Shown piece after piece: positions 31,984 through 57,720 of a stretch of 64,000 bases of DNA. Within the stretch, counting starts at the first letter, position 1. Each line of letters starts with the position of its first letter. The translations under genes were made by a program, and so were the position numbers. Source of the stretch: Trichoplax sp. H2. Its lineage: Eukaryota. Under the pieces are notes generated by a model. That model saw only the letters and a program-made list of their open reading frames with translations. It had not been told where the DNA came from and made no database searches. The DNA lies in assembly GCA_003344405.1 (NCBI GenBank), contig NOWV01000190.1:1-64000 (forward strand), given 5' to 3'.

Positions 31984-33985
31984 CGATATATGTGATATCT
32001 CTTGATAGAGTAAAACACTACTTAAAGTATGCATAGCTTGTCTTAACTGTGGCTATGACCTGGTATTTAAATTAAGTATTAGAAGGCTATTATTGTCACA
32101 GCGTTAGGTTGTAACAGCCTTGTAATTTATTATTTTAAAAAAAAAAATATAAGCAATTGTTAGATTTATGTCTCTAAAATAACTATTAGTGAGAATTGTA
32201 GGAATCTATTATATAAGATAGTTGGCTGATGGTAGAATGCTTGATGCAGTTAATTTTTAAGCATGGAGTTTTAATTTATGCTGCTAAATTCATTAAGGTA
32301 TTTGTTATGATAGAGCTTTAAGAATTACTGTCGTAGGTCAAACTAACTCATAATAAATGTACTTTAAATTAAGAAAACTGATTTGAATATTATTTTTTAC
32401 TATTACTGGCTTTTACCTCCAATACAAGATTTCTACATTAAGTAAAGTACAATAATTACAGTTTGTGGCAACAGATTTTATTAAACATGACTGATAGCAA
32501 ACCAAGTTGCTATCAAGTCACACATATTAAATGTGTTCAGTTTTGCCTGTAATAAATAATTTTTGTACTTAATATACTAATGATTTGGTCTGATTTGGTC
32601 TTTTTAGGTATGTTTGATAGCAAAACATAATGTATACAAGTCATGCTTATAAGTTAAAAATTGCAAGAACTTCCCGCAAATTAAAAGCTTACTCATCGTA
32701 GGTACCATAACATCAGCTCTTTGTACGAATGGATTCATTGCTCTTATAGTTTGAATAAGTGCAAGTACGGTCAGCTATTGAAAAATATTTCTATCCGCTT
32801 TAGAATTAATTTATGTTTGTTTGCAAGCCAGCAGAATAGTATAGAGCTTTTGTATATAAATTTAATCATAATTGAACTGCTCAAACTAAAAGCATTCCAC
32901 GCCTACTATTTTCTTATATCATATGTTAAAGGCATTCCATAGTTACTATTGAGAGTCTAGATAATAGCAAATTAAATAGAAAACCTGTCGATTGTCTAAA
33001 TTCCGAATTAATGTTGCTCTAACCGAATAATACTTGTAATTATTAAAACAATATCTCTCTATTACTAAGTAGTTTAGCCTAGTCAACATTAAAGCAAAGC
33101 AGAACATGACTGTACTCGTCCAGTGATTGTAATGTTGTTGACATTATTGTTTCGTTGATTTTATATAAAAGTTGCACGTGTTTTGCAAACTATTACATTT
33201 CAAATTTAGGTAGAAAAATAACAAAATGTATCAGATTGTCATTTCTAATTTCAGATTGCACCAGTGAGGCTTACTAATAAGAAGTAGTTTAAATTAGCAG
33301 TAGCTCAAGATTTCTCGGATCTGCCCTAGTAAAGTACAGCTTTTACAAATTCTATCCTACGAGTACTGCTATAGATACGAATTCCACGCAATACTGTGTG
33401 ACTACTCCTACGTGAAGCTAAGTAATTGCAAACTATCGGCTTACGAGAACTCTTATTACAGTTATTTTGGCAGCAATTGTTGTAAAGACCTACTTTGGAT
33501 TAGCTCTCGCTAGGATCTCCGGTTAGTAAATACAATTACCTCAATAAAATCAATTACTTTTGCTATTCATTCATCATTAGCCGTACTTAACACAACAAGT
33601 TAGCCATGGCAGATATAAACAATTGTTTAACACAGTAAATTGCTAAATCATATAGTCCTAATTACAGTTGTCTGCTTACTATTACTTGGTACAAGAAATT
33701 AATAGAACATTATTTCGCTACCATACGGCAATGTTTGATTCCCTATCCATTCCATGATTAAACCATAGTCAAATTAGAGTTACAACCTAATTTACCTTGT
33801 GTTTTAGAATTTTGCTATCTTATATAAAGCTAAAATATTCCATTAATGATGATTTCTATAGTTCGCTTTGTTATAATCGGTTACTTAGTCATACCTATTG
33901 CTGAAAGTGATTGCTTGAAAAGTACCTTCGGCGTAATATCTTTGTGATTTTTATAACATTAATAGCTACTGGATTTGACACCTCG

Positions 33986-34341
33986 TTTGAAGATATTCAA
34001 TTACAGATGATACTATATATATATATATAATTCTGTGTATGGACATACTGTAGTCCAACTACCTAGAATCGCTCAGTACATGTCTAAGATTATGAATAAT
34101 TTCTGTATTAATTTAGTTATCCAATATGAACTAAACTGCTATCACTCATGCGTAATAACTGCTGCCGAAGGGTGTTTAAGCCCAGCAGATAACTGAATAA
34201 CAGGATAATGCTATAGTTAGTTAGCGTAGAAGCAAAGGCGTCTAAATTCTTTTGAGGTGGTTAAGGGATACTCAATCCCGAAAATATTGTAATTTAGAGA
34301 GTTATTTTACGTTACCTTTCTCACGAAGCTGGTTTGTGAAA
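33986..34341 (+). mobile_element. 5'-truncated family B LTR-like copy just upstream of PARP copy 1
   Basis: ggacatactgtagtcc...gtctaaattctt...ttttacgttacctttctcacgaagctggtttgtgaa matches 1343-1616. Confidence 0.75.
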
Positions 34342-34620
34342 TGAATTAATAGCTAAAATAAATAATAGTGATAATTCATTAAGAAAAGATAAGGTTTTAC
34401 CACGTCCTAGTACTTAATTAGTTTCAAACATCGAGTCTCAAAAATCGTCAAATGCTTACGGATAGATGTATGCTAGATTCAGTTTTCAACACTTTAAAAA
34501 TATTAAATTTATGTTACTGCTATTTTACTTCTTTAAAAGAAAAATGCTATCTATGATGTAAGTTGTACAGAATATCTGGTTCAAATATTAAGTTTTACTG
34601 ACTTCTAGGGAATACAAAAC

Positions 34621-37600
34621 ATGAAAAGAAAACAAGCTTTACAGAAAAACCCTGATAAGGCTAAAACAGTGAAAAGCTCACAAAGTGCGGATAGCAAATA
34701 TGAGGAATATGAGGTGAGAACGAATCTCAATCAACTACTAAAATTAAATGAGCTAAATTAAAATCACCTTATTAACTTTATTTACACCAATATACGACTT
34801 CTTTCATATTGTAAATCTTTTAAAAAATTGCAAACTGAGCTAGGAGCAAATGATGTTGTTATGGGAAACAAGAAATAAAATAGGGAGTGAATGCACTGAG
34901 GAAATGCTTAGAGTGATGCAATCTCGAAATAATCGTCCAGAGCTATCTGGAAATGGAGTGAGTTTGAAATGAGCATGAATTAAAAGTTAACGATATGCCG
35001 CTATATTATTCACTTAAATTGGATTGCATTTTATGACCTGATCAATAAATATTGATGTTGAAATAGAACTTGGAAAGTTGTGCTGATGGTATCTTATTCG
35101 GAGCATTTAAGCCCTGTCCAATCTGCCATCAGTCAGAAATCCGTTTCAGGTAATTAAAATGCTTTGAACCAGCGTATCGAGAAGTTTACTACAGAAGCAG
35201 AACTTCATAAGAAAGCATTGATGCCAATACCCTACAAAAAGCAGCTTGATTTATCTAAGAGATTTTAAGCTAAATTTTTAAATAGTATGTACTAGTAATA
35301 TATTTTGACATAGGTTTGAGTTAAAGATTGCTTCATTATGAATAGATTGTTAAACTAAAATTAAAAATTTAATATTAGCAAAAAATCCCGTTGCTACAAG
35401 TGCTATAGTTTTATGGGAGGTAAGGTATGCGAATATGTAACAGATAAAGCTGAAAGAACTGCCTGGACAATTCCTGAAGAATTTAAGGCAATATCTCCAT
35501 TTCTGTGAGTAGACGTCGTGAATCGCATGACATTAACTATGCTTTACAAATAAACTTATTCCTCCATTTTCAATGCCTTTTAGATATTCATCTATACCCT
35601 TCTTCTGTATTTAAGTACTAGTAAATCAATTGATGATATGAAGATATCTTTAACTTTTGTACTTTCCTATCAGTGCATGTTTCTGATACTAATTTGTTAC
35701 ATGCAGAGCAAGTTATAGTTACATTCCTCGTGATCGAGTTTACTGCTGGGCTGACACATATAGTCCTCTTCCTGATGAATTGAGATGGCCTACGGTGTGC
35801 AGGTATGACAATAACCAAGTATTAAAGAATATATAAAAATATATATATATACAATGTTTATATGAGATTTCAACAACTACTATCTATATAGACACCATTA
35901 AATTTAATTCCACGTATTTTTACTATTTTTATCAAGTTTTCAGTTATAATTAATTAAAATCTAATTTTAATGACGGTAACTGCTGCCTTATTAAATGTAC
36001 TGTAATGATTTGATTATCTTATTTCAGATCTGATATTTTAAAGATAAGACCATTAGGCAGTATACGTATTACAGCTATCGGCAAGCTTAAAAACAATAAT
36101 GTAAGTCAATTTGAAAGCTAGATTCAATTTTCTTCATTTATGAGTACGTATTTGAGTCTCCTGCAAAGCCAAATGTTATGGTCTTACGTGATGCTAAGGG
36201 TAACATTAAGAAGAAAATAAGTAACTTAGGTGGCATATTTCGCGATCAGATCTCCAAATATATCGATTTATGCATCAGTAACTCAGGTTATCAGAAATAT
36301 CACTTAATTTATTACCTTTACATTAGTAGCATACGGTGTTTGCAATTGGAATCTATCTAAGCTGTAATTATATTTTGCATTCAGAATCACTTAGTAAAGC
36401 TGAAAAACAGAAAATTGATAGTCTGGCTTTGCCTGTTGTTTCGGATAAGTTCCTTGAATTTATTAATGACATCAATTTCGATGAGGCTATGATAAAATAT
36501 GCTATTAGCAATTGCACAATCGATAAGGTTAGTTGTATTAGAATGAATAAAATCATAGATTACGTTTAATTTTCGCTTAATTTGCCTGTAACCAGATATA
36601 CTTATAATATATGAGTATGTCTAATAATCGAATTCGATACTGTATTTATTTTAGATTGCAAGTATTAAAAACAGGAGACAAGGTAAGTTGAATTATTAGC
36701 TATTGATTCACTTCTGGTATTGTTGTCAACTGATACTAATCATGAAATTAATTTTAATTTCTTATAATTACTAATAATATTTGTAGGATACTATTCAACA
36801 AGTATTATTGATTTACGCAAAAACAGCAAAGCGGTTGTAGATCCTTACTCTGGTATTTATATTATAAATGCATAACTAATCACTTGGCCTAAGTACATCT
36901 GTTAGAGCTTCTGGTAGAAATGGCTCTGTATAAAATAATTGTGGCATTTAATAAATTGCTTAGTGAGAAAAAATAATTAGCAAATCAAATTTTATCTAGA
37001 ATTTAAAAGTTTATATTTAATATTTGATAGGCTTGCAAGATGACTATCATGTTATTGAAGATTCAAATGGTATTGTTTACAGCGTAGTGCTTGAAAAGAC
37101 GCCTTGCGAATTTCTTAAATTACAGGCACTAAAGCATAATCAATTGAATCAGTTAGTTTATTTTTTGTATGATCATATACAAATTATATTAGCTGATTAT
37201 TGCTACACTTTGTATTTGTAGATAAATTGCTTTAATTTGATAAAACGGAATTTGTTACATATTATATAGCTGTTGCTTTGTTCGGATTAAAGATTATGTG
37301 GCTGGCATTGGAGAAATAAGAATTGAAATTGAAGTTAGAAAACAATTTTCTTTTACTTAACAGTGACCAAATATAATACGATTGTAATCATTGTGCTCAT
37401 TTGCGGAATAAATTACATAGAGCTTTATGTATTAGTATGTTTATGTTTCCTCGCTAATCATTTTTTAGGATGGCCTTACCGAAATAGAAGCCAAGATGGC
37501 TTTAGATGCTAAGTACTTTCAGAAAACAGGTTTGTACGAATAGCATATTATCACTGTCTCTTAAACAGTTTAGGTTTATTCAATACTAAGTTATTCTTTT

Positions 37601-40600
37601 CATAGGTTATTCATTTATAAATGGGATACAAAGTAAGCGCAAGGCGCAAAAGCTTTATTATCCTATTGGTACTGCGTACATTCCAGATGAGGTCTATAAT
37701 TCATTTATTATTTTAGGCAATCGTGCAGCCGTAAATAGCGCTTTTTACTTATAGATTTTTTATTATACTAATTTTTCCCCTTGAAAAATGATTATTGGTC
37801 GCTGATAATTAGGATAAAGAAGCGATTAAATTAGATAGTATAATATCCGAGGCGCAAACTAGTAAACTATCATATGAGATTCAGAAGTTACTGAAATTAA
37901 TTTTTAACGTTAAGTCCATTGCAGCAATAGCCATGGAATATCAGGTATCAGCTATTACCTAAGATGCAAATTAACGGCTCTTATTAAAGTAACATAGACT
38001 ATATTAGATAATCTAATAGCTATATGTGATATATACCAATCACGAAATTCCAAATTTTAGAAAAATAAGGGCTTTATTGAATCTTATACAAAGATTAACT
38101 ACACACAGCTCTACTCTAGCCGAATACTACTACTAAAGACTTCTATAAGGAACTAACAGAATAATCTAAAGTTGCATGCTTTTATATTTTTCGTAGCATT
38201 CGCAGCTACAGTCCGCGTGGCAACCTTTTACCTTATATTACACATAGTTAAATTAGTCTTAGTAACACTATTCTACTGCGGACCATCATTAATCCAATAT
38301 GGATACGGCTACAGTACTTATGTAGACATTATTCACTCCAGCCAATGTACAATGAATTAACCTTATTCTAATATAAGATTTACTGTTCTATTTTTACCTA
38401 TAGCCTTATTAGTAACTCAACACCTTACTGCATATAGTCATCTGAACTCTAGCATAGAGTCTCTACCACTACAGTCTATAGTTATAGCTACCAAATATCT
38501 CTTAGGATAAATATTTACCGTACATTATACTAAATATGGCTAACAGTCTACAATTACAATGCTAAGTTACATTACACTATATTCATAGATTGATGTAGCG
38601 AAATTACCGTTAAAAAATCTCACGGCTGATAGGATTACAAAGGCAATGCAAATTCTTCATCAGCTCGATGCGGTTAGTTTGTTATAAAAAATTTTTTGTT
38701 TAAATTATCTAATCTCAATATTTGATTACGAAATGAAATTGTTATTAGCTGCAAAGTCAAATAGACCGTGCTACAGAATAATTTGCTAAGCAACATAGAT
38801 ATAATAAATACAATAATTAAGCAATTTATTTTGTTACTTAGCTTTCAAATAAGAGAGGTTTGAAAGATCGAGAAAGACTAGACAAGGTCACGAAATTGAA
38901 GCAGAAGTTTAGTAGTATTCTTCCGAAGGAATTATCAATTGACGGTCATCGCTGGTTTGATGATGTATTTCGCGTAAATGTAAATTATTAAGCTAATTTT
39001 GAAAATTAAATCTATTATACTTTATTATCTAACAGAATAAAATTTTATTTTACAAGCACATTAAATAACGAGTTTAGTAGCATGTCTTCTGAATCTTATA
39101 CATTATTTCCGTAGAACATTAAGTATACTTTTGAGCATATTTCCGACATCCCAGTGGCTTATAATCTGATCAAAAGTATTGAAAATGTTAAAAAAGACCC
39201 TATATACAAATTATACCAGAGCTTAAAGACAGAACTTGAAGTATGGCGTATAAATTTAAGCATAGAAAATTTAATGCTTTACGTTAATAATAATATCGTA
39301 TTAAAATTAAAATGCTACATCATGTAATGGAAACTCTTTAGCTTGTAGAAAAAGAAAGTGAAGAATTCAATATGATTTGTGAATATGGTAGCAAAACTTG
39401 TGAATCACCTAGAGAAGAGTATTATAAATTAAAGATAGAAGAGGTTTATAGATAATAATGTGATTTATGAACTTGAGTTGTAGATATAGATAATTAAGAA
39501 CCTTAAACTATACGAGTGAATAATTGCAGTATGTACAATTCAATACGCAGATATATAAGATCAAGAATCATAAAAGTCACAAAACATACGAAAAATTTTG
39601 CGGGTTGGGTAATCGAATGCTTTTATGGAATGGAAATCGCTTAATTAATTATGGTCGAATATTCAAGCAAGGAATACAACCTATGGCAACATTCGGCTAC
39701 CTAGGCGTGAGTATAAGGCTTAGGATTTAAATTCAACTGTATGTGATATTAAATATTAATTACAGCATATAGAACAGTGCTGCACCTTACTACAACAGAG
39801 CTATAGATTTGATTTAAGAATTAACTATTATACCAAAGTGGCTTATTTATGATTCGAACTTGTGATAAAACAAATTCACAAAATCTTTATACGAAACAAT
39901 CCATAATGTAGTCAATACATATTTCAATTTACAAACTGCAAGATCAGTAGTAGTCAGAAAATCATTTATTGAAATTTTCTAACCGAATCCCTAGATTCTA
40001 AATTAATAACTAACGCTGACATAGTAAATAGACAATTTCTATTCTTTCGTAATAAATGCAACGAATTAAATAGCTTTAAAAAGATAACAGATAGTTGCGG
40101 TATTGATATCAAGTTGATTATTAGTAGTTGAAGTTACTATCGATGTCTTCAAAAATTTTCTACAACAGTCAAAAATTGTTACAGCTGGCTACTTTAAATA
40201 TAGCATGCTAATTGAATATAAATATTTCTATGTAGAGGAAAAGTTGTGATTATGGAAAAGGAGTTTATTTTTCAGGTAAGTAGATTGATATATTCTATTT
40301 CTATAACATTGATTTTTAGAAAATTTTTTAGAAAATTGCATTTTAATCCAAAGATAATTTTATTTTCTTAATATACAGATATGATGTGGAAAGTAAGGAA
40401 ACCGTAATTTATATCAACTAGAAATATTTATATTCCTTCATTTCTTTATGATAAATTTAAATATATACTGTAGATTTAATAATGTAATGATACTCAACAT
40501 TAATATTGATAGGCCGCTCTAGATTGTGAAGCTACTTTTACGAATTCTACCGGATTACTATTACTATGTGAAGTCGCACTCGGTAGAACGTATGTCTATC

Positions 40601-41166
40601 AATAGCACTCATAGCTGATCACATCATAATTATACCTATTTGCTCTACTAACAATATCAAATTTAAAATAATTTAATAAATTAAACTGCTGTTACCGCCA
40701 TTACTCTTGTTCTTTGTTACTATTAGCTCAGAAAATCCGTCTGACGTTAGTAAACCACGCTCAACTGCTGATAGCGTCAAATGTAAGTTATATACATTAA
40801 GCAAAGATTAACCTGAATAAATTTCCTAAATTGCGCTATGGGCTGAAATTAATAAGTTAAATTATTTGTGTATTGCAGCTACAAGTCCGATAGGACCAGA
40901 TCCGTCTGGAAATATAACGCTTGAAAATGACGTAATTGTACCGATAGGAGATATTAACAAAGCTGAATACTTTGGGGAAACAAATCAGTATCCTGACACA
41001 CTTTAATTAATTTACGTAATAGATAAAAGACAATTATTATGCATTACAAATTGTCATTTTCCTTGATGATATTATTAATAGATATGTAGTATACAATCCT
41101 GGCCAGGTAAAGCTCAATTATGTTGTACAAGTAAAATTCGATTGGGTCGATATTTTAGAAGATTGA
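34621..41166 (+). CDS. Multi-exon divergent PARP1-like protein (PADR1/Zn3, BRCT, WGR-like, regulatory, ART fold) with degenerate catalytic site
   Basis: Spliced exons read LESCADGILFGAFKPCPIC...CYKC...CEYVT..WTIPEEFK (Zn3), SNLGGIFRDQISKYIDLCISN (BRCT), YHVIEDSNGIVYSVVLEKT (WGR N-part), SKLSYEIQKLLKLIFNVK / IDVAKLPLKNLT (regulatory), NRMLLWNGNR, YGKGVYFSD, GLLLLCEVALG, NQYVVYNPGQVKLNYVVQVKF (ART); stop TGA 41164-41166; ATG 34621 may not be the first exon; not every exon junction verified. Confidence 0.85.
38025..38576 (-). mobile_element. Solo-LTR-like insertion (family F, 552 bp) in a PARP copy 1 intron
   Basis: TGTGAT...ATTACA; perfect TSD CTATA (38020-38024 / 38577-38581); the equivalent intron of copy 2 (~48033-48128) is short and lacks it. 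Confidence 0.8.
40988..41081 (+). other. Putative U12-type (minor spliceosome) intron
   Basis: 5' GTATCCTG, branch site TTTTCCTTGAT ~15 nt before AG, no polypyrimidine tract; equivalent intron at 50327-50429 in copy 2. Confidence 0.7.
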
Positions 41167-44100
41167 ATGTAGTTGTAGACGGCTTAATCAATAGACTAAA
41201 TATTACAATTACTGTTGTAATATCATGATCAGTTTAAAAAATTATAAGTACACTGTAATGACCATTTATAGTACTTTGATAGGATTTTAGGTATTTAGTT
41301 TATACATACTAAACTATAAGAAAAATCTTCGACTTTAGGAATTGAGTAAGTCTTTTATACAACACTATTAGTATCGTAAAGCGCAAGTCTTACAATTTAT
41401 TAATCTATATGGACTAAAGTAGAAGTACTTTTCTAGCACAGCATACTTACACACTTCGAAAATCCTTATCTAGTCAGTTATAAAGCATATTTTTTTAAAT
41501 ACAGTAAAAAATTATTATCAATATATTTGATAATCCAGATGTAATGCACTTAAAGCTATGCCTAGATACAATATGGTAGACAAATAAGATGGAAATAGTA
41601 GAAAAACGTAGGAAAATATATTTGTAGGCATGTTTACCGGTGAATTTATGAGCTTTAAATTAATGATAGCAATAAAGAAAATAACTTTCTTCGTAGCTAT
41701 TTTTTCGAAAGTGAGTGAGGTCTTTGATAAAATAAAAAATTTGTTAAATAAATCTAAAGCTTCTTTTAGCTGTGACTATTTCTTTATATTTTAATTGTCC
41801 GAAGTTTTTTTTGTTGCGAAGCTGGGGTGGTGACAGCTCTGTGATCGATTTTTCTCTAAACTTAAATAATTATTAGATTCATGTATCTGAAGTAAATTAT
41901 TCTTGGCCGGAATTTTAGGAATCTATCATTGGCTAGCAAGCCAATGATAGTTTCAATTTTGTTAAGAATCTTACTTGATGCGAGCGATAGAAAATATACT
42001 ACGGTTTAAATGTAACTATCGTATTTTTAATCGTGCTGCTGAATAAGTTTTAAAAGGTATTTACTATACTGAAGCTGTAATAAATACTGTCAAATGTCAA
42101 ACACTTTTATCAATAAATAACTTCGATTAATATAAGTTTTCAATGTCATTTTTGCATTAGCTGATCTTTTTAAAGGTATATAACTGGGTCATTATTAAAT
42201 ATGTGTCTACTATCTAAAAGCAAAGGTAGATGAATCTGTAGTTAAAGTATATTTCATATAGGCTATTACCTAATCCAGAGCAGTTCTCAAGAATTTAGCT
42301 AACTATGATGGTTTGACTAGGTTGCAGTGACTGGAGGTACTTAGCAGCAATCAACTTTAAACTAGCTATACTTTTAATACAATACTTAAATGCTAACAAT
42401 ATTAAGAACTTTTAATAAGCTCCATGCTAACTAATTATATATATGATGATAGCAGCTCTGAGCAAGGACAGATTTACTACAAATTGTCACAACCCTCACT
42501 TATGGCAAAGATTTTGTAATGAACTCTAGTGCAAGTGCTATCTCTAACTCCGGCTACTTTCCCTTATTTTCAGTCTCTATACATATTTTAAAAGTTGCTT
42601 TAATAGATTTATACAATTACTAAATATGTAAGAGTAAGTCAACATTCTGGAAGTTAAGGTGTTCAAACACTCTTCCTTCATCTATATTCACGCTTTAATT
42701 ATAATATTATAGCCTAGCACACTTTACAGCCTTCCGTAAATTAACATGTAAGAATTTTTATATCACAATTCTACTGCCTAAGCATTAACTAATACATGCC
42801 TATTAAAACTAAATATTATAACACTTGACCTTATGCGGACTATTCTAAAATATTCATTATTTATTAATCAATAATCACTTGGCAAGTAACTCATTACTGT
42901 TACATCCTTGTAGTTGTAATAACTGCAAAAAAGGTTATCAATCGCTAAGTATTTCTATATTCAATGCAATTTGTTTTCGTGCATTGACATGGCGCCAAAA
43001 TTCTTTATAACTTCTTTAAATAAATACAATCATGGTTAAAGTACGCATGCTAAAGTTGTTCCACACCTAATGTTTTCTTATGTCATATGATTACCATTAA
43101 CTAAAATATGGAAAGCCTTCCGATTGTCTAAACTGCAAATTAATTAATGCTGCTCTCAGCGAACAATAGTTGCGGTTACGAAAACAATACCTTCTCCACT
43201 GCTATTTACTTTGGCCTCGTTGATATAAAAGCATAGCAGAACATGAACGTTCTCGTCCCATCATTTTAACAGTGTTAATATTATTATTGGGTTAGGATAC
43301 TCGCACAATCTTTATGACAGTCTTGATATTATTATTTGATTGGGATACTAGATATAAGATTCCACGTGTACTACAAGCACTTATATTCTAATTTGAGATA
43401 GCAGAAGAATAAACTATATTAGATAGTCATTTCAGATTGCAACAGCAAAGCTTATAACTAGAGAAAGTTACAAAAATTACTAATAGTGAGAGTGAATACT
43501 GTAGCAAATCGCTACTCAAATCTGCGTGAGTATACTATAACACTACAAGGTCTATCGTGCCATACTACTGTTTATACTGAAATATTTTACTCATCGTTAG
43601 TAAACAAGAGTACTTGTATTCAAATTAATCGCAAGTCGTCGGTCTTCTAGCAACATTTATTAATTATATATTACCAGTGCACTGGGTAACAGTTTTTTGG
43701 TGGCAATTTTTGGAGAGCTTCTCTAGACTAGATTTTTCTAAGATCTTGGGTGAGTAGACATAATGGTCGTGATAAAAACCACCTATTATTTGTTTATCAT
43801 CTGCTAAACTCGCACAGTTAGCAATAGCAGCAATGATTCAGAATTAAACTACTGTCTGTTACTATTACTATTACTTGGTTGTAGGTTAATAACAAATTCC
43901 ACTGTTATCATGCACTAATTATTGACTTTCTATCCATTTCACGACTTGACCACTTTTACAATAGAACTAAGACCTAGCTAACTTGTGCTGTAGCATTTCG
44001 CTATCATCAATGAGGCTATAACGTCCAATTAGCGATCATTCTATAATTAGTAGAGGTGAAAATCGTACGCGTACACTAAGTGCCGTTTCGCACGAAAAGC

Positions 44101-44577
44101 GATTACTAGAAAATTATTTATAGTGAAGCCCGTGAGATTCCATTACAACGGCAGCCATTAAAGTAGATATTTCGATCGGAAGTAAAGTAAGTAAGTCAAT
44201 AACCGTTTAGAACGGTAGCGATATTATGTCATTTCAAGATCTAGATTTAACCACGTTTCAGTCCTGAAATCGGTCCATACATTGAGGCTGAAAAATTTTC
44301 TGATACCGTACTTAAGGATAAATTTACACTATGCCAGTAGCATTGTCCATTACTTACTCAAGCATGCAGTTTTTTATCTCATTGTAAATCCATAGAACTA
44401 TTCTAAGTTTTACAGTAATTAATTCGTGATACTTCGCTAGGCCTAGTTCTGTAATATTTGATAATTCTACTTTTTACACCATTAAATTATAAAGAGAAAA
44501 ACATGTCTATGACGTGTGTTGTACAGGTTATCTGGCTCAAATTTTCTAGTTTTGCTGACTTCTAGATCTGACCAAAG

Positions 44578-47500
44578 ATGAAAAGAAAACAAGCAGTACA
44601 AAAAAGCCGTAATAAAGCTTAAACAGTCAAAACTTCAGAAAACGTGGATAGTAAATATGCTGAATACGAGGCAAGAAATCATGTCGATCAACTACTTAAG
44701 TTAGATGAGCTGAGTCTTAATCTCTTTAGTAGCTTTATCATTATTAACATATTATCAATCTTTAAATAAACTGCATGCTCAACTAGGAACAAATGATGTT
44801 GTTATGGGAAACAAGAAATAAGTTAAGGACTGAGTGCACTAAAGAAATGCTAAGAGAGATGCAATTTGCAAATTGTCGTACTACTTCATGTGAAGACACA
44901 GTAAGTTCAAAAATTATCATGAATTGATAATTAAGCATATTGAGCTATATCGTCAATGTGGATTCGATTGTATTTATGAACTGAGCATCAGCAATTGACG
45001 TTGAAATAGAACTTAGAAAGTTGTGCTGATGGTATCGTATTTGGTGCATTCAAACCCTGTCCAGTCTGTAAAAGGTCAAACGTCGAATTCAGGTAATGGA
45101 ATGTTTTTACAAACATATTAAGAACTTTACTACCTATACAGGACTTAAGAAGGGAATAATAACGTTATTGTCGTATGAGAATAGCTTTAGCTTTCATCTA
45201 AATGAATTTTAAGTTACTTTTTGTAAAAAGCTTTTCCTAGTAAATCATTTTGAAGCAATTATGAGTAGTAGATTGTTTCATTTCGAATAGATAATTAACT
45301 GTGATCAAAAATTAAATTTTAGCGAAGACACCAATCGCTACCAGTGTCTAACTTGGGTAGGTGATAATCTATGTAAATATGTAACCGATACGCCCAAAAG
45401 AACAGCCTGGACAATTCCTGACGAAATCAAGGCAAAATCTTCATTTCTGTAAGATGCACGACAAACTGTATGACATTTATCATACTTTATAAAAGAACTT
45501 ATGGAATACTTCTTAATAAATCTTGAAATATTACGTCAGTCATTTCTATTTAAATAAACGTCAAATCAAATGTTCGCATAAAGATATCTTTATAATCGTT
45601 ATTTCCTAATCAGTGCATGTTTCTGGTATTAATTGTAGCGCAAACTATCGTTACATTGCTCGTGATCGAATTCATTGCTGGGCCGATAAATCTTGTCCTA
45701 TTCCTTATGAAATGAGATGGAATATGTTGAGCAGGTATGACAAATAATCAGGTTGTAAGAAATACGTAATCTCCGTAAATAATTGTTGTAAAGGATAACT
45801 AAATAACATAATGTTCAAGAAATCATTCTGTCAAGATTTTTACCAAGATATAGCTCACAGATAGTTAGATTCTAATTTTGATAACAGCAGTTACTACCAT
45901 ACTAACTCAACAATTTGATTAACTTTTTGTAGATATTCTATTTTGAAGATAAAGCCATTAGGCAGCCTACGCATTACAGCTGTAGGCAAGCTTAAAAAGA
46001 GTAATGTAATGCAATTTGAGTACTAGATTTATTTATCTTTATTTACAAGTAAGCATTTGTATCGTACAAAGCCGAATTTAATAATATCCTATAATATTTA
46101 GGACAACATCAAGGAAAAAATAAGTAGCTTAGGAGGTATATTTTGTGATCAAATTTCCAAATATATCAATTTATGTATCAGTCAGCCTGGTTAGTAAACT
46201 ATAGCTATCAATAATTTTATTTCCTTTACATTGGCAGCATTAAGTCTGTTATCAGATTGCATCTTAGTTGTGATTGTATTTTGATTTAGAATCACTTAAT
46301 AAAGTCGAAAAACAGAAAATCGATAGTCTGGGCTTGCCATTAGTTTCGGATGAGCTCCTTGAAGTTATTAGAGATGGCAATCTGGATGAAGCTATATTAA
46401 AATATGGTATCAGCAATTGCACAACGGATAAGGCTAGAACTGTTTAATTGAAATAGGATAAAATAATTATATCTGTTTCACGTATGATATTTACTTAATG
46501 TTTCTGTTACTAGATATATTATATGTGTCTAATCATCAAATTTAATATATATTTCAGGTTGCAAATATTAAAAAAAAGAGGCAAGGTAAAATTGAACCTT
46601 TAGCAGCCGATTAATCCACAATACATATTATGAGATTAACTTCTTTTTTCCTTTGCTATCACTTTGTAGGATATTATTCAACAAATATTATTGATTTACG
46701 TGTAAATGGAAATGCAACCGTAGATCCCTATTGTGATATTATTTTTAATGCATAGATTAAATAACTTGGTTAAAAATAGCAGTTACTGATTGGGATAGAA
46801 ATCACTAAAAATCAAATAATCATGATATTTAACGAATTATTGCTACACATCAATAGACAAAATAAATCTACTCACGCCATGCTAAGTAAATTCGCCTCTT
46901 ACTAACTAAAAGGGACAAGATTAACTACCTCATAAAATAGATCAGTTCTAACGACCGAGAACTATAGTATCTTTATAGCGTCACTAAGCCTACGTATCGT
47001 AACAATCGTATAAGGCAAAATTATATTAGATAACTCGATTTATACGTAGGATTTAAATCTGTGAATTAAATATTTGATAGGCTTACAAGATGACTATCAT
47101 GTCATCGAAGATTCGAATAGGAACATTTACAGCATCGTACTTGAAAGGACCCCTTGCGAATTTCTTAAGATGCAGGCGCTAAAGCACAATCAATTGAATC
47201 AGTTGGTTACTCAATTTTTAGATATGATCTAATGCGAATTAAATCAACTCATTATATGACCGATTTTGCTTCCGGCTTCGTTTATGTACATGTCCTTTAC
47301 TGAATTTTATCTAGACATTTTATGTATTTATATTTAATAAAACCAATTATGTTATTTAAATAGCTGTTGTCTTGTCAAGATGAGAGATTATGAGACAGAC
47401 CGAGCTAAAATTAAAATTGAAATTCAAGTTAGAAATCAATCTCCTTCATTTTGTAGTGATAAAATATAATATGCTTGTTACAATTTTTATTCATTTGTAG

Positions 47501-50500
47501 AAAGAATTAAACAAAAACTATGCATCAATATGTTCATGTTTCCGTGTCAATCAATTTTAGGACGGACTTGCGGAAATAGAAGCCAAAATGGCTTTCGATG
47601 CTAAATACTTTAAAAAAACGGGTCTGTGTAGAAAGTGTATTATCTTTATCTTTTAAACAATGTATATTTATCTAATATTGATTCTTCTTTTTATAGGTTA
47701 TTCATTTACAAAAGAGACACGATGTAAGCGTATGGTACAAAAGTTTTATCCTATTGGTACTGCATACATTCCAGATGAGGTTTATAACGTCGTTAATTAT
47801 GGAACTATCGTGTAACCGTATATAGTACTTCAATAGTTATAGATTTCATTGTTGATTTGATTTATTGTAGTGTAAAGTAATATTTAGTTATTTATACATA
47901 GGATTCAGAAGCGATTAAATTAGATAATAAGATATCAGAGGCATTATGTAATAAAGTATGCCCCAAGGTTCAGAACTTACTGAAAGTAATTTTTAATGTC
48001 AAGTCGATTTCAGCCACTATGATGGAGCTTCAGGTATTAATGATCGCTCGAAATGCAAATTAGAAGCTTCTTACTAAACTACGAAAAACTTTATCAGATA
48101 TCAGATAATGTGGTAGCAATATTTATAGGTTGATGGAGCAAAATTGCCTTTGAATAATCTTACGGCTGAAAGAATAATGAAAGCAATAAAAATAATTCAT
48201 CAACTCGAAGCGGTTAGTTGTACTTTAAAAATTAATAATTTAAATTGTCCTGTCTTACGGTTTGGTTATAAAATTATATCGCTAATTGCTAGAAGATAAA
48301 TTAGATTATGCTAAAAAGTAATTTTTCTAAGCAACATAGTTATAGTAGATACAGTAGTCAAATAATTTTTTATACTGCTCAGCTTTCAACTAAAACTGAT
48401 TTAAAAAAGCAAGAAAGACTACGCAAGGTTACAAAGTTGAAGCAGAAATTTTATGGTATTCTTCCTATGGAATTAAGTGTTCATGGTTGTCGTGCGTTCG
48501 ATGACGTATCTGATATACGAGTAAATTTTATAGAGATATTATTATACTGAATTAAGAAACATTAATCCTTTATACGTATTTATTTAGCAGACATAAATTT
48601 AAATTTGCTTGTAAATAGAAAATTAAGATTATTAATGAGCATTTCTTTATCTTATACTTTGTTCTGTAGAAGATAAAAAATACGTTTAAGCATATTTTCG
48701 ACATTTCAGTAGCTTATGATCAGATTCAAAAAGTTGAAAATGTTAAAAAAGATCCAATTTACAAATTATATCAGAGCTTAAACACAGAACTAGAGGTATG
48801 TCATATGAATTTAAGCATAGAGACTTTAATTTTTGTTTTAGTGACTATAATTATATCTCAATTGAATTTACATACTTTATCTTGCATTTAAAACTCTTAA
48901 GCTGGTAGAAAAAGATAGTGAAGAATTTAATATGATTGTAGAATACGGTAGCAAAACCTGTGGAGCACCTAGAGAGCAGTATTACCAATTGAAAATTGAA
49001 GAGGTTGTTGACCTAATAATGTGATTTGTGAATTTGCGTTTTAAATATAGATAATGGAGTAACTCTTGAACAATTTGAGAAAGTAATTGTGTATATATAA
49101 CTTAATGAACAGATATATAAGATAAAGAATCATGAAAGCCACAAAAAGTACGAAAAATTTTACAGGTTGGGTAATCGAATGCTGCTGTGGAAGGGAAATC
49201 GTTTAATTAATTATGGTCGAATATTCAAAAAAGGTATCCAACCAATGGCAGCAATCGGCTACCTAAGCGTAAGTATGAAGCTTAGAATTTAAATTCAAAT
49301 GTATGAGCAAATGAAAATTGATTATAGTAGGCGGAGCAATAGCGTAAAGTATTACGAATTAGCTCTTCGAATAAAACCTGATAACTAAATGTAACGTAGT
49401 AGCGAGAAAAATTTCATTCTAATATAGCATTTAGTGATTTCAACTAATTACAGTAGTGTGTTGATATCAAGTCGATTAGATGAAGCAGCTATCGATGTAT
49501 TTAAAAAATTTTCTAAAATATTCGAAAACGTATTAATTTGCAATTTTAAATAACCATAATTGACATGAATAAACATTTCTATGTAGTGGAAAAATAATAA
49601 TTTAGAAAAAGGAATTGATTTCTCAGGTAGGTAGATATATTTCATTCTCTAAAATGTAGAATTTGTTCATACTATTGCATTCTGAGTGGAAAATATTTTT
49701 ATATTTTGAATATTTGCTGTAGATATGATGTGGAAGGTAATGAAACTCGTAACTTGCCTTCGTTAGAAATAATGACGATTCTCTAACATAAATCCAATCC
49801 AAATGTGTAGACTTAAAGCTTCAATACTCTTAACAAATCTTAATAGGCAGTGCTAGATTGCGAAGCTACTTATACAAATTCTACTGGATTACTATTACTG
49901 TGTGAAGTCGCCCTCGGCAGAACGTATGTCAATCATAAATACTGCAATTATAGTTGATCACGTGATATTTAGGCATATTTGCTCTTCTAGTATTATTGAA
50001 TTTAAAATAATTTAGTAATTCAAACTGTTGTAATCATCATTGCTCCTATTTGTTGCTACTATTAGCTCAGATGACCTGTCGGATGTTAATAAGACACACT
50101 CAACAGCTGATAGTTTTAAATGTAAGCTGCTTAAATTAAGCTAAGATCAACTTGAATAATTTATAGAAATGGTGCTTTGGCTTGCATTTATAAGGTATTG
50201 CTAAATTTATACTGCAGATATCGGTCAGGTAGGACCAGATCTATCTGGAAATATAATACTTGAAAATGAAGTAATTATGCCAGTAGGAGACATTGACAAA
50301 TCTAATTACTATGGGAACACAAACCAGTATCCTGATATACTATATGTTTGATATATAATTATAAAATGATTAAAGACTATTTTTATAGATATTATAAACT
50401 TTCATTTTCTTTGACGATATTGTTAACAGATATATAGTATATAATTCTAGCCAAGTAAAACTCATTTATGTGGTACAAGTCAAATTTGATTTCATCGATG

Positions 50501-50514
50501 TTGTGAAAGATTAA
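44578..50514 (+). pseudogene. Tandem PARP1-like copy 2, probably a pseudogene
   Basis: Exon-by-exon paralog of 34621-41166; in-frame TAA at codon 15 (44620-44622); donor GT>AT at ~46736; two GT>GC donors; catalytic region LLWKG / EKGIDFS / NQYIVY; stop TAA 50512-50514. Confidence 0.78.
46845..47004 (-). mobile_element. Fragment of family D element in a PARP copy 2 intron
   Basis: atcagttctaacgaccgagaactatagtatctttatagcgtca matches 21066-21114; absent from the copy 1 intron; boundaries approximate. Confidence 0.6.
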
Positions 50515-51027
50515 AATTAGTTGTAGTCAATATAATCAATAGAAACATTATTACAATTAGCGCAATAATACCGTGGTTAGTATTAAAATCGAAATTTGTG
50601 CACAATGTAATGTCGATTAAATGCACTTTGATCGAATCTTAGGCAATCAGTATATAATTACTGCAATTCGTAGGAAACCTTCAGTTTTAAGAGTAGAATA
50701 GGCCTTTGTTACAGAAACATCTTAAAGTACAAATCTTATAATTCATTAATTAATATGTATTAAACAGCAGCTACGTCCCAATACGGTGCATTTAATTACT
50801 ATAAAAACCTCTACCTATTCAGTTATATAGCTTATTATAACTAAATGTAGTTGAAGTATTATTAGCATTTTGATCATGTGGATGTTGCTGTTTTTTAATA
50901 CGAAGTCCAAAAACAATACTTTAGACAAGAAATGAGGAAAAAGTAGAATAATAAACAAAAAAATTGGGGGAGTTTTTTTTTTCCTAATAAATTTACGAGC
51001 TCTAAGCTAAGAATAGAAGTTAAGAAT

Positions 51028-51102
51028 TGTTACGGAGCTTGATGCTCTTTGATAGTTATATTATAATAGCTAGTAGTAATCTAAGATAGTAGAATTACTG
51101 TA
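51028..51102 (+). mobile_element. 5' end fragment of family C element at the PARP duplication breakpoint
   Basis: TGTTACGGAGCTTGATGCTC...ctagtagtaatctaagatagtagaattactgtaa is the reverse complement of 29450-29514. Confidence 0.7.
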
Positions 51103-51654
51103 AAAATTATAAATAAAATTGCAAAATACTTTCATGATAAACTTTATAGTAAACCAGTAATAATTATTAAAATTTAACGGTATAGTGCACATGAAGCTTG
51201 CTAAATTTTTATGCTATAGAGTGTTATTGAAGAATTTAGAGTAAGTGATAATTTTTAGCTAAAAGAAACACATTCCACGTCAATAGTATTATTACATTTT
51301 AGTAATAAACTTATTTACCACCATTTAAAATACGAGACCCAAACTAATTGAACTTTTCATGAGTGGAAAACAGTGATAACACGTTGCCTTTCTTTTCTGT
51401 ATGCTACCTTTAACACTAAGATATTCGAGTACAATCTAAAATCAAAATTTTTGTCCATTCAATATCTCAAAAAAGTTTAGCAAATACAAGATAGAATGAA
51501 AGGTATTTAGTATGGTTAACTAATTTTAAATCAGAATTATTCATATCAGGCTAGTATTGAGAAGTAAAGGCATATTTTATAAATAATTTTATCATTTTTT
51601 AAAATCGTCTACCAACTTTTAGGGATAAAAAGTTATTATTGGTTATTTCGACTT

Positions 51655-52661
51655 TTTATTAGCGATAAACTAAAACAAGTTCTAAATCTACGAATCAACA
51701 ATTTAAATTCATCTTTGAAATTGATGCTAGCAAAGTTATATAAAATAGATTCAATATACCAGGGATAAACATTACTACCGTAGTTACACGAAACAACATG
51801 GAATATTTAGAGACTAGCATATTGGTAAAATTTGGATTATAAGACTTTTGAAATGAAATCCAGACATAATTAAGAGCATAGGGTATAATGCCACAAGCAG
51901 AGAGCGTACTGATAATTAATAACGAAATTATACTTGAATTTCGTTTTTTAATAGTTTTTAACGTTTGTAATTTATATCTCGAGTTTTCGATTGGAAGATT
52001 TATATTGTACAATTTAATAATGATGCATGTATAGCATACAACGATGATCGAAGGGGGTAATAAAGAAGTTAATACGGCAAAAATTGCTGATGAAACTAAA
52101 CTGGGATCGAAATGAGTTTGAGAAAGTAATCCAGAGCAGTCAATTAAGTCTCGGTGATCATAATCGGTAACAAAAATGATTATTGTTGCACTTACAAGTG
52201 CAAAGAACCAGATGGCAATAATAATAAAGTTCATTTTATTTCTATTAATTGATCCAGTAAGTGAATGAATAATGCCGCTATATCTTTCTATTCTAATTGC
52301 AGCTAATGTTATCAATAAATTTGATATAGCTACTGCTGCAATAAAAATGGGTAATGCCGCAAAAGGTTCTTGACGTTATTACGCAGTGGTTGCCTTATAT
52401 CGGACAAAAAAATCATAGCTGACAGTGAAGATAATCATAATGCATCTTAAAATCGATGAACAGCCATAAAGAATATCAGCAAGCGCTAAATTTGCGATTA
52501 GAAGGAGAAAAGGTTGTCGAAGTCGTTTACTGTTTGATATGAGTGAGCAAACAACGATATTGAAGATTGTACTAATAATATTGACAAGCAAGACGCATAA
52601 AACCAAGTCGAAATGTTAATTAATGATTTGACCGCTGGTCGAAATTGGAGAAATTTGCCAT
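51655..52661 (-). pseudogene. GPCR pseudogene, close paralog of 4276-5280
   Basis: ORF pieces 52379-52606 and 51695-52315 are highly similar to the 4.3-5.3 kb receptor, with frameshifts after the N-terminus, in ECL1/TM3 and at NPILY. Confidence 0.92.
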
Positions 52662-53020
52662 ACTTGATAGTTGTAAAAGCTCTAACCCTATGTCTACCTT
52701 TGTAGATAATTTATAAGCTTGACAGAGAAGTTTAAAGTGCAAATATATCGATTTAAGGCCTTGGGATAACAAATATACGGTCGCAAAGTTATTTAAATTC
52801 CTAATCATACTTATATTTTTTGTATTATAAATAGATAATTAATCAATTAATCATCACACATGGTATAACCATGTCTAAAAACAACATTGTAGTCAACAAA
52901 ATTGTGCTAGTATTAATTTTATTATGTACTACTCAATCCACGATTTCTTAAAGATAAATAAACATTTATCCTTATCTTACTCATGGTAATCATTAATAGT
53001 ATGTAAAAATATTGAATATA

Positions 53021-53148
53021 GTTTGATTCGATTACAATAGAATAGGAATAAGTTTGTTTTCCCTTACTGAGGATCGCCAGAATTAGTTGGAGAACCATAA
53101 TAGTAGATAGACTAGATTAGTTGCGATCACGAAAGTTGTTTTGTGACA
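53021..53148 (+). mobile_element. 3' end fragment of family C element
   Basis: Matches the reverse complement of ~29095-29222; ends TTTTGTGACA; absent at the paralogous position ~5630. Confidence 0.7.
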
Positions 53149-53999
53149 GTCATTTTTTGTACTAGTTATATTTTGTAAGTTACTATAAGCTCCTACCGAA
53201 TTATAGTACTAATTGTAATTTATTCTTCCTAATGATAAAAATCATCGACAATTGTACTTTACAATAGCAGATTTTATTGGAGTAATTGAATTTTCGGGTT
53301 ACAAGCTATACACCGACATTATGTTTGTAGCTATACAAAGCTAAACAGCTACATTAATGAAACGAGTTAATCTCGTAACTGTAATTTACAGCTGCATTCA
53401 ATTAATTTCAATGTAAAGTTGCCCTGCGAAGCTGTTATGATTAGTCAACATATGTTTAACTTAACAAAATTTAATCAATGAAATCATGCTAATCATGAAC
53501 TCTAAACGTTCTTTAAGTAAGATGAAAAGGAAAATTAGCTACCAATGATTATGAACCTTAAGTATAAATGCTAGTTAGCCCATATTAAACCGTAACTTCT
53601 GCCCAACTCCAAATTTATTTGCATGACCAGATAACTTGCAATCAAGGGGCCTGCCGCCTATTCTTGTTTGCATTTTTAATTATCCATAATGTTAATTGAA
53701 ATCATCATGCGTACTTTATAATTATCAGTAGAATTGCGTAAATATGCTAAGCTGTTGAAGACATATTAATTACGTCATAAAATTAGTCAAATTCAGCATT
53801 TCAGAGGCATACAAGCTAGATTATTTTTAAAATAGAATATACGAATGAGAATAATACAAAGTAAGAGGGTAGTATCAGATTACTTATATTGAATTCTGAT
53901 CAAAAATTAGCTAAATCAAAATATCAATCTCTTAATGCAAAGAAAAAAAAATAATATATTAAGATTAAGACATCTCTTAGCCATTTTTATGCGATACAA

Positions 54000-54811
54000 C
54001 TTATTTTAAGTAGCCCTTTCTGGCATTTATAAGAAGTTAACTTAAATTTGGAATTAACTTGAAGAAGGTTCTCCTAAAATCGGCACTTGAAAAATTATAT
54101 ACAATTTTTTTGTCTTTTCATCGATTTCATGACTTTGACTTTATAGATAGAATTACCAAGTAGCGGACTATTTCTATACAATGTTAATGTGATCTTAACG
54201 TAGCAAAATAACATCCCCCAAAGAAGAAATTAAAACTGCTTAAATGTCAAAATGACTGATAAAATAAATGTTGTTAAGTACAAGTTGAAATAAAATAGTA
54301 GAAAAACCAATAATCTGATAGCTATCGTAAGCAAGCACCATAATCGCATTTCTGAATAAATAAAAGTATAGATCCAAATACCAATAAAATTTATCCAAAT
54401 TTTATCTTTACTAACCGTTACAAATATCGTATATATTATTCTGCGATACCTTACGAATGAGAAAATAGACAAGATAGTAATAAGATTGGATGTAGGCACT
54501 ACAGAAATATAATTGGCTACAATTCCAAAGTTCTGATAATTTTTCTGCCATGAGGGATTCTTTTGCATGATTGTCAGAGCTAACAGGCAGCATTGTATGA
54601 GCACTTGCTGCTAAACAAATCAAAATATCCGTGATTGTTAAACTAGTAATAATAATGTGTAGTAATGGTTGAAGATCATTATTGGAAATCACCAAGTAGC
54701 ACTCAATTATGTCAAATAAAATCCCAATAAAACCGACACTGAGTGTGACCACTACTAAAAACTAATTCAAAATTCATTTATGGAAAAACTTTCATTCATT
54801 AGATTAAATAT
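54000..54811 (-). pseudogene. GPCR pseudogene (9626-type), frameshifted, TM6-TM7 deleted
   Basis: SNNDLQPLLHIIITSLTITD and FVRYRRII in different frames; ATG>ATA at 54809-54811; ~190 bp equivalent to 9720-9910 missing at ~54100. Confidence 0.88.
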
Positions 54812-56402: not shown

Positions 56403-56414
56403 GGCTATATTATT

Positions 56415-57154: not shown

Positions 57155-57237
57155 ATCAATAAAAAAGGCAAATCAATATATATTCCAAAAAGGATGCATA
57201 TTCCAGGGCATTTACAGACTCCTCCATACGTAGGAAG

Positions 57238-57718: not shown

Positions 57719-57720
57719 GT

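Follow-up and report, generated by a model that had tools for sequence, protein, structure and literature searches.

A fingerless PARP1-derived gene of Trichoplax with a replaced NAD+ site: a candidate pseudoenzyme

A 64,000-nucleotide stretch of DNA from Trichoplax sp. H2 (assembly GCA_003344405.1, contig NOWV01000190.1, positions 1 to 64,000 of the forward strand; hereafter the window) carries a tandem pair of genes related to the DNA-repair enzyme PARP1, a poly(ADP-ribose) polymerase. The first of these, copy 1, is a real, expressed and selected protein-coding gene whose product probably acts in the nucleus as a non-catalytic binding or scaffold pseudoenzyme. An earlier note, made from the letters of this DNA alone, had described its catalytic site as dismantled. 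The spliced gene bears this out and extends the loss beyond the residues named there, to R878, the donor loop, Y889 and M890.

Replacement of the NAD+ site

The full copy 1 model matches human PARP1 (chain 9mi8_A) with an E value of 4.5e-52 in a phmmer comparison. Residues are numbered here as is usual for the human protein; the chain runs 20 higher (its H882 is H862). The catalytic (ART) profile PF00644 scores 97.9 bits against a cut-off of 26.7 (E 7.1e-28) in the public model TRIADDRAFT_61730 (P0001), and in a longer H2 model (P0003) the match spans profile positions 1-192 of 199. The exon at 39551-39706, which reads ...NRMLLWNGNRLINYGRIFKQGIQ, could be aligned to PARP1 chains with a best E value of 1.2e-4. 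The features of the site are as follows.

39357..41163, + strand: ART (PARP catalytic) domain, residues 580-786, triad N-Y-Q (PF00644)
39629..39637, + strand: N-G-N replacing H862-G863-S864; the Asn codon AAT lies at 39629-39631
40266..40268, + strand: Tyr896 retained, within GVYFSD (alignment to 9mi8_A and codon position)
40513..40524, + strand: A-A-L-D replacing S904-A905-N906-Y907 (alignment and codon positions)
40986-40987 and 41082, + strand: split codon CA/A, Gln replacing E988 (GT..AG joint 40987/41082 in four runs)

Active ART members carry an H-Y-E or H-Y-hydrophobic triad with His at position 862, a pattern that neither copy follows: copy 1 has N-Y-Q and copy 2 has K-D-Q. The sequence MMWKAALDC stands in copy 1 where PARP1 has MVSKSANYC, retaining K903 and introducing S904A, N906L and Y907D. 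A 12-sequence alignment adds R878 to Q, Y889 to C and M890 to D, and in the same alignment the APPEAP donor loop of PARP1 is replaced and is two residues longer. The CEVALG strand, G863, Y896 and K903 are kept. Copy 1 shows one property of pseudo-PARPs, with the ART fold retained and the NAD+-contacting residues lost. Ahead of GKG, copies 1 and 2 diverge at seven consecutive loop residues.

All of the residues that the earlier note had named (H862N, S864N, S904A, Y907D and E988Q as changed; G863, Y896 and CEVALG as kept) were recovered at the places it gave. E988Q is real and can be seen only after splicing, its codon being divided by a joint that occurs in four RNA runs. The last exon (41082 on) aligns with the strand of PARP2 found immediately after its catalytic Glu. 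Mis-splicing was considered as an artefactual origin of the substitutions and ruled out, since the joints that flank each changed residue are present in RNA.

Gene models, splicing and transcription of copy 1

The window is about 30% G+C throughout, and its exons are short. In a protein search that passed one of two candidates, the exon bearing LLWNGN is 98% identical to TRIADDRAFT_61730 of Trichoplax adhaerens (H1). The 90% cluster of that protein has four members: TRIADDRAFT_61730 (P0001, 740 residues), TRIADDRAFT_61731 (P0004, 312 residues), TRIADDRAFT_61732 (P0002, 391 residues) and P0003, a 1506-residue 'Poly [ADP-ribose] polymerase 1' of Trichoplax sp. H2 that merges the other three. When all four are compared to the window with tblastn, exactly two loci are found, both on the + strand, at 34621-41115 (copy 1) and 44578-50484 (copy 2). 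Where the H1 and H2 models disagree, the window matches H2.

The published models contain three kinds of error. P0001 skips exon 18, retains intron sequence before exon 7 and runs at its C-terminus into intron 25. P0003, which is identical to copy 1 over residues 1-740, fuses the two copies and includes a spurious exon at 49428-49496. P0004 and P0002 are copy 2 broken into two models. An RNA-supported structure is supplied here in their place. The locus itself was thus already annotated. What appears to be new is its dead catalytic site, the absence of the fingers, the subfamily and the revised gene structure.

Contigs from four sequencing runs of four studies (X5, X9, X10 and X12) were mapped onto positions 34000-51000. 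A single run is recorded as RNA; the remaining three, of presumed RNA type, must be complementary DNA because their contigs skip introns. The mapping gave 15 joints that are listed and 43 more beyond these. Fourteen of the 15 joints listed are copy 1 introns, each present in all four runs and all GT..AG. The fifteenth, 38248/38516 (TA..TT), occurs in one run only and falls within a repeat. Contigs of 2817 to 3196 nucleotides cover copy 1 exons. The 5' exons of the model come from public models threaded through GT-AG introns, and the middle exons from reading of splice sites.

34621..41166, + strand: copy 1 coding region, exons 34621-34713, 34844-34957, 35067-35149, 35379-35504, 35707-35802, 36028-36100, 36199-36286, 36385-36527, 36655-36682, 36787-36852, 37031-37151, 37270-37333, 37469-37529, 37606-37691, 37813-37944, 38589-38672, 38842-38979, 39115-39240, 39342-39443, 39551-39706, 40236-40275, 40379-40392, 40513-40589, 40727-40782, 40879-40987, 41082-41166
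33267..33521, + strand: non-coding 5' exon of copy 1, firm at its 3' end; the 5' end is a lower bound (loose end of at least 255 letters)
40379..40392, + strand: micro-exon of 14 nucleotides (..DMMWK) that carries K903; AG/GT flanks, its letters lying between the sides of joint 40275/40513 in all four runs
41167..41720, + strand: 3' untranslated region of copy 1; contig pieces span 41082-41720 in X5 and X10 and reach 42099 in X9 (41082-42099)
38025..38515, no strand: repeat of about 490 nucleotides in intron 15 of copy 1

The resulting model has 26 coding exons and 25 introns, all GT-AG, and an open frame of 786 residues from the ATG at 34621 to the stop at 41164-41166. A transcript is therefore present, and its coding sequence is free of stops and frameshifts. 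In the bins of run X9 that were checked (35134 to 41370, 567 bases each), mean depth is equal to 88 times the number of model exon bases divided by 567. Observed depths of 36.9, 31.5, 53.8, 5.9 and 61.8 compare with expected values of 36.9, 31.5, 53.9, 5.9 and 61.8, and the start of exon 7 at 36199 and the inclusion of exon 18 are therefore supported. The long contigs (2817 and 3196 nucleotides) have 1624 nucleotides upstream of 39342, where the model has 1734. They apparently begin about five nucleotides into exon 2, about 110 nucleotides short of exon 1.

The interval 34621-41166 given in the earlier note holds for the coding region, but the gene also has a non-coding 5' exon that ends at 33521. 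A contig end at 34608 in X5 and X10 runs on for 30 letters that match 33491-33520, and a GT at 33522-33523 together with an AG at 34607-34608 fits a joint 33521/34609. The protein starts at 34621, because the 5' exon has an in-frame TAG at 33501-33503 with no later ATG.

The repeat in intron 15 is absent from the 95-nucleotide intron of copy 2 and corresponds to the unaligned gap in the comparison of the two copies. RNA word depth over it is 428-2672, compared with 3-43 in the preceding bin (37402-37968), and many divergent loose ends fall at 38024-38028. It contains no long open reading frame. The repeat is probably a mobile element of non-autonomous type, with transcripts coming from many genomic sites. 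No Rfam family reaches its gathering score within 33000-51500.

Domains outside the catalytic region

Upstream of the ART domain, copy 1 has the following regions.

34690..35460, + strand: PADR1 / third zinc finger, residues 24-124 (PF21728 E 5.4e-12, PF08063 E 1e-8)
36028..36527, + strand: BRCT-like region, approximately residues 170-270 (weak match; aligns to PARP1 BRCT)
36787..37691, + strand: WGR-derived region (phmmer alignment to the PARP1 WGR region)
37861..39216, + strand: helical regulatory domain (PARP_reg), residues 431-566 (PF02877)

PF02877 scores 54.9 bits in P0001 and is covered from position 1 to 135 of 135 in P0003, so that all three profiles against which the earlier note proposed to align the gene (PF00644, PF02877 and PF08063) find matches. 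The third finger (Zn3) retains its four Cys residues (codons at 35115, 35124, 35401 and 35428) and lacks the Trp of the 'EWTKC' motif. Matches to BRCT profiles are weak: PF00533 scores 19.5 bits in copy 1 against a cut-off of 21.3, and PF16589 scores 27.4 against 27.3 in the copy 2 half of P0003 only. The WGR-derived region reads IKDYVAG (K codon 37289-37291), where other animals have AWGRVG or AWGRIG. PF05406 (WGR) has no match in P0001 or P0003 at E<=0.01, while the oyster PARP1 (P0069) used as a control matches at 1.2e-18.

The first two zinc fingers (Zn1 and Zn2) are missing. The zf-PARP profile PF00645 has no match in P0001 or P0003, and tblastn of the zinc-finger part (residues 1-315) of P0005, a fingered PARP1 from the same genome, has no match anywhere in the window. 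The in-frame TAG at 33501-33503 likewise closes the frame ahead of the ATG. Copy 1 begins at a KRKQ that corresponds in the alignment to the KRKQ immediately preceding the third finger in P0005, approximately at the nuclear-localization KRK of human PARP1.

Paralogs and phylogeny

Relatives were collected by a word-based search (64 of 5796 candidates passed), by a HMMER search of 1.84 billion representatives (1695 matches at E<=0.001, of which the best 150 are listed) and by cluster names. Among the matches listed, Trichoplax has at least five PARP1-derived genes, three of which are outside the window.

P0005, RDD42997.1 of Trichoplax sp. H2 and TRIADDRAFT_52697 of H1: zinc fingers, triad H-Y-E, 35% identical to copy 1
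P0006, RDD36839.1, with P0008, TRIADDRAFT_60629: triad H-Y-R; H862 retained, S864F, K903E, Y907R; degenerate third finger
P0068, TRIADDRAFT_61728, on the same 800-kb H1 scaffold: triad L-Y-K, 53% identical to copy 1

A tree of 25 proteins (last 500 residues, LG+G4) has an animal PARP1 clade of 16 rows with support of 100/100. The four full-length Trichoplax proteins form one clade within it, also at 100/100, which upholds the earlier proposal that copy 1 derives from PARP1. Copy 1 and copy 2 pair as sisters with 100/100 support, on end branches of 0.13 and 0.25. The stem of the Trichoplax clade is long (1.06), and some long-branch effect on its placement may be present. A derived D[IM]MW motif in P0005, P0006, copy 1 and copy 2 agrees with the grouping in the tree, as does the shared loss of Y907.

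S864N, S904A, N906L and Y907D are common to copy 1, copy 2 and P0068. Because these changes are shared, the NAD+ site was lost before the three genes separated, and the earlier suggestion that most of the loss predates the duplication stands. Position 862 is N, K and L in the three dead paralogs, and 988 is Q, Q and K; 862 differs in each, as would be expected once a position had ceased to matter, and has drifted since. Y907 is lost from all five Trichoplax genes, being Q in P0005 and R in P0006, so Y907D is not peculiar to copy 1. P0006 is like copy 1 in having no catalytic Glu and differs by its retained H862, whereas P0068 differs from copy 1 by its L-Y-K triad.

The separate canonical PARP1 that the earlier note suggested looking for exists as P0005, the only fingered H-Y-E PARP1 among the Trichoplax matches listed, which is itself atypical. 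It matches zf-PARP with an E value of 6.5e-23 and retains H862, S864, R878, Y889, M890, S904 and E988. However, it has W, M and Q at 902, 906 and 907, and it lacks the W-G-R motif as well as, in Zn3, the Trp of 'EWTKC'. PF05406 has no match in P0005 or P0006 at E<=0.1. Besides the placozoan clade and the D[IM]MW motif, P0005 shares with copy 1 the losses of Y907, of W-G-R and of the Zn3 Trp. Judged from these residues, DNA-dependent activation of P0005 may differ from that in other animals. That even the active paralog has no WGR motif flags the placozoan DNA-damage response as unusual.

Selection on the pair

Selection has maintained the copy 1 reading frame. At the protein level, 518 of 754 aligned positions (69%) are the same in the two copies. 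Their ratio of nonsynonymous to synonymous divergence (dN/dS) is 0.30 by the NG86 and maximum likelihood methods, 0.34 by YN00 and 0.42 by LWL85, at a dS of about 0.55-0.6. None of these estimates is near 1, the value that the earlier note had set against its own proposal. By domain, the ratio is 0.26-0.29 for the catalytic region, 0.24 for the helical domain, 0.20-0.21 for the WGR-derived region, 0.34-0.37 for the BRCT-like region and 0.48-0.49 for Zn3.

The duplicated unit aligns through its introns at about 70-75%. In 24 intron pairs, 124 insertion or deletion (indel) events occur in 3156 aligned bases, and 98 of these are not multiples of three. The 26 exon pairs show length differences of only +9 and -3 bases. 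Frameshifting indels in exons thus number zero, compared with about 73 expected at the intron rate.

Comparison within the genus gives different pictures for the two copies. Copy 1 is the same in the H1 models as in the window at all 718 comparable residues, whereas copy 2 differs at seven of about 680. Relative to run X12, copy 1 has three synonymous and three non-synonymous coding differences and copy 2 has six and 12, all of these counts being minima that include only differences away from contig ends. With P0068 as outgroup (356 sites), relative-rate tests find 14 changes unique to copy 1 and 23 unique to copy 2, which is not significant (chi-square 2.19). With P0005 as outgroup (743 sites), the counts are 33 and 52 (chi-square 4.25). 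Intron identity was also tried as a neutral yardstick and dropped. Depending on gap penalties it is 0.77 or 0.73, against 0.805 or 0.793 for exons, and it is unusable because it depends too strongly on alignment settings in 70% A+T DNA. The dN/dS and indel counts were used instead.

Copy 2

Copy 2 follows the exon plan of copy 1 and includes the 14-nucleotide micro-exon (49723-49736).

44578..50516, + strand: copy 2 (TRIADDRAFT_61731 and TRIADDRAFT_61732; second half of P0003); frame open from 44787 to the stop
43964..44186, + strand: 5' exon in copy 2 transcripts (contig pieces in all four runs; one 1292-nucleotide X12 contig links it to 47080-47253)
44620..44622, + strand: in-frame TAA at codon 15 of the first coding exon, in the window and three runs; X12 has AAA (Lys), 44620 T>A
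46736..46737, + strand: exon-10 donor AT in the window and three runs, where copy 1 has GT (splice-site comparison)

The K-D-Q triad is encoded at 49191-49193, 49617-49619 and 50325-50326 plus 50430. The earlier note had given copy 2 the changes of His to K, Y907 to D and Glu to Q; each is found (K at 862, D at 907, Q at 988), and there is in addition a D at 896.

A contig of run X12 lacks ten nucleotides inside exon 25 of copy 2 at 50238 (50238-50247), with 286 nucleotides observed where 296 are expected. The TAA of the window and three runs, set against the ten-nucleotide deletion of X12, therefore indicates two lineages with different disabling lesions in copy 2. An X12 contig has 829 nucleotides between 44186 and 47080. 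The exons in this interval amount to 826 nucleotides without the first coding exon and to about 931 when it is included, yet some of the X12 differences fall within this exon. Copy 2, the younger of the sisters, looks like a gene that was selected for most of its history, is now dispensable and is drifting towards a pseudogene. The earlier view that the gene is maintained by selection thus holds for copy 1 (dN/dS 0.30-0.42, no frameshifting indel in exons). For copy 2 it holds only in part, as past selection, in view of the recent disabling lesions.

Between the two copies, at 43072-43748, RNA contigs occur on both strands (43264-43525 minus, 43363-43748 plus), upstream of the copy 2 5' exon. 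These contigs may represent additional 5' exons of copy 2 or an independent transcript.

A pseudoenzyme and its rivals

Copy 1 would have originated by duplication of a placozoan PARP1, followed by loss of the two zinc fingers that recognize DNA breaks and then by loss of the NAD+ site. Its product keeps the third finger, the BRCT-like region, a WGR-derived region that has lost its motif, the regulatory helical domain, and an ART fold. Its NAD+ site is replaced at H862, S864, R878, the APPEAP donor loop, Y889, M890, S904, N906, Y907 and E988.

The case against catalysis is made by analogy with human PARP1 mutants. H862 hydrogen-bonds the 2'-OH of the adenine ribose and is described as conserved among all ADP-ribose transferases that have enzymatic activity (PMC7515702). 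Human H862D retains neither poly- nor mono-ADP-ribosylation, even with 5 mM NAD+, and is trapped on DNA, H862A is active only at high (5 mM) NAD+, and E988K has some mono-transferase activity (PMC7515702). Replacement of E988 by Q or K lowers activity more than 40-fold and leaves mono-transferase activity (PMC7726343). In copy 1 the His, the Glu, Ser904, Arg878, Tyr889 and the donor loop are gone together, and polymerase activity should be lost with them. By this comparison it is close to certain that copy 1 would make no poly(ADP-ribose), and it is likely that it would not bind NAD+ productively. Without Zn1 and Zn2 it cannot sense breaks as PARP1 does. The parts that remain conserved (Zn3, the BRCT-like stretch, the helical domain, and the ART fold beyond the pocket) suggest a binding or scaffold role. 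The placement of that role in the nucleus, and any partner that it may have, are predictions.

A more specific form of the pseudoenzyme reading, which we put forward tentatively and consider unlikely in itself, is that copy 1 works on the H-Y-E PARP1 as a decoy or dominant-negative partner. Contacts with that protein, or with its partners, through Zn3, BRCT, helical or ART surfaces would then damp or redirect poly(ADP-ribose) signaling. Copy 1 is a paralog of P0005 in the same genome and retains domains for protein contact, and its start at the KRK region suggests a shared compartment. Yet competition for DNA breaks through Zn1 and Zn2 is impossible with both fingers absent, so the classical dominant-negative mechanism, one of the roles raised in the earlier note, has become improbable. 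In addition, neither copy 1 nor P0005 retains the W-G-R motif or the Zn3 Trp, which make interdomain contacts in human PARP1.

It is quite unlikely that copy 1 is still an enzyme, whether a weak or re-specialized mono-ADP-ribosyltransferase or a protein that uses NAD+ in another way through a remodeled pocket. G863, Y896 and K903 survive, and the dN/dS of the catalytic domain is no higher than that of the other domains. Residual mono-transferase activity is also seen in human E988Q/K (PMC7726343, PMC7515702), and H862A is active at 5 mM NAD+ (PMC7515702). Furthermore, P0005 has an H-Y-E triad and no Y907, so this lineage may hold nicotinamide differently. Against these points, at least ten NAD+-site positions are altered together in copy 1, including R878, the donor loop, Y889, M890 and S904. 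The occurrence of N, K or L at 862 in three paralogs, with the seven-residue divergence before GKG, indicates that constraint at the site has been lost, and the His in question is the one conserved in all active members of the family (PMC7515702).

It is very improbable that copy 1 is a decaying pseudogene that is still transcribed and whose frame is open by chance: the region is rich in tandem duplications, the sister copy carries a nonsense codon, a lost GT donor and the X12 deletion, and dN/dS is above that of typical housekeeping genes, but this reading was rejected on the 786 codons open over 26 exons at such a dS from the sister, the absence of frameshifting exon indels, the identity with the H1 model at 718 sites (with half of the six X12 coding differences synonymous) and the canonical splice sites, all used in RNA.

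Several observations weigh against a selected, non-catalytic copy 1. The joint between exons 1 and 2 is absent among the joints listed, and this part of the model is supported by public models, splice sites and bin depth. The contigs give no expression level. A dN/dS of 0.3-0.4 is only moderate constraint and is averaged over both copies. Alignment of the exon pairs gave gaps of 1, 1, 3 and 4 bases, which we attribute to the aligner having broken up the net +9 in exon 8. Because there is no ortholog outside Trichoplax strains among the matches listed, the depth of conservation rests on paralogs. Predictions from human residues are less safe in the placozoan lineage, because P0005 differs at 902, 906 and 907 and lacks the WGR motif. 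Finally, a rebuilt pocket could bind a ligand, given that G863, Y896, K903 and CEVALG are kept and that constraint on the catalytic domain matches that on the rest of the protein.

If copy 1 is a pseudoenzyme, a broader and speculative extension, which we regard as doubtful, is that placozoans have rewired PARP1 signaling. They would combine an H-Y-E PARP1 that lacks the W-G-R motif and Zn3 Trp, which elsewhere couple DNA binding to catalysis, with at least three fingerless, NAD+-blind derivatives (N-Y-Q, K-D-Q and L-Y-K). These derivatives would be kept as nuclear partners that regulate or read the active enzyme. Were this true, they would be the first pseudoenzymes known from PARP1 itself.

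Comparison with known systems

Animal PARP1, as represented by the human (9mi8_A) and oyster (P0069) proteins, has the same order of PADR1/Zn3, BRCT-like, WGR-derived, helical and ART regions as copy 1. Copy 1 differs in having no Zn1 or Zn2, no W-G-R motif, an N-Y-Q triad and a rebuilt donor loop. Its extent resembles PARP1 without the first two fingers, which we take to be roughly the 89-kDa caspase fragment.

PARP9, PARP13 and the plant RCD1/SRO proteins retain the ART fold without the H-Y-E triad and use it non-catalytically. The TASOR pseudo-PARP and PARP13/ZAP-L also have an ART fold without H-Y-E that is put to non-catalytic use, as proposed here for copy 1. The origin of copy 1 is independent of that of PARP13/ZAP-L, PARP9, TASOR and RCD1/SRO, in that it comes from PARP1 and keeps the regulatory domains of PARP1. 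We know of no inactive PARP-fold protein that has the PADR1, BRCT and helical-domain architecture or that is derived from PARP1 itself.

The nearest precedent within the PARP1 clade is in land plants. In Clade 1D PARPs (Arabidopsis PARP3 type), C and V replace the H and Y of the triad, and these proteins are described as 'alone among Clade 1 members' in this respect in the main text of PMC2964712. Like copy 1 they are Clade 1 proteins with an altered triad, but the plant proteins keep the Glu, whereas copy 1 loses Glu and His and keeps the Tyr. In the light of copy 1, the claim that land plants alone changed the triad in the PARP1 clade (PMC2964712) would need correction. Engineered H862D, H862A and E988K/Q changes of human PARP1 affect the same positions but are single changes in a full-length, DNA-binding enzyme. 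Trapping on DNA of the kind seen with H862D (PMC7515702) would not be available to copy 1, which has no Zn1 or Zn2 for it.

The main text of PMC2964712, as distinct from its supplementary alignments, mentions Trichoplax only under Clade 3 and does not mention these proteins. In the available text of PMC4245714, Trichoplax is mentioned only for PARP4 and for PARP14-like duplications. Literature searches by accession names and words found no description of these Trichoplax genes or of the triad loss. A naturally fingerless and triad-less PARP1 under selection in an early-branching animal would show which functions of PARP1 need no NAD+.

Neighborhood of the pair

The PARP pair lies within a tandem array of single-exon open reading frames on the minus strand (4279-28095 and 51698-54761), with at least six upstream of the pair and two downstream. 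The members look like seven-transmembrane receptors by a shared motif, ...LIANLA..D..., and their DNA repeats are 74-86% identical, 47 kb apart. On the plus strand, several long open reading frames of no assigned kind are present at 55144-58174. They are followed on the same strand, at 58403-60457 and approximately 62068-64000, by two duplicated genes whose frames are BTB-Kelch-like by eye and which are 74-80% identical in DNA (region 58403-64000).

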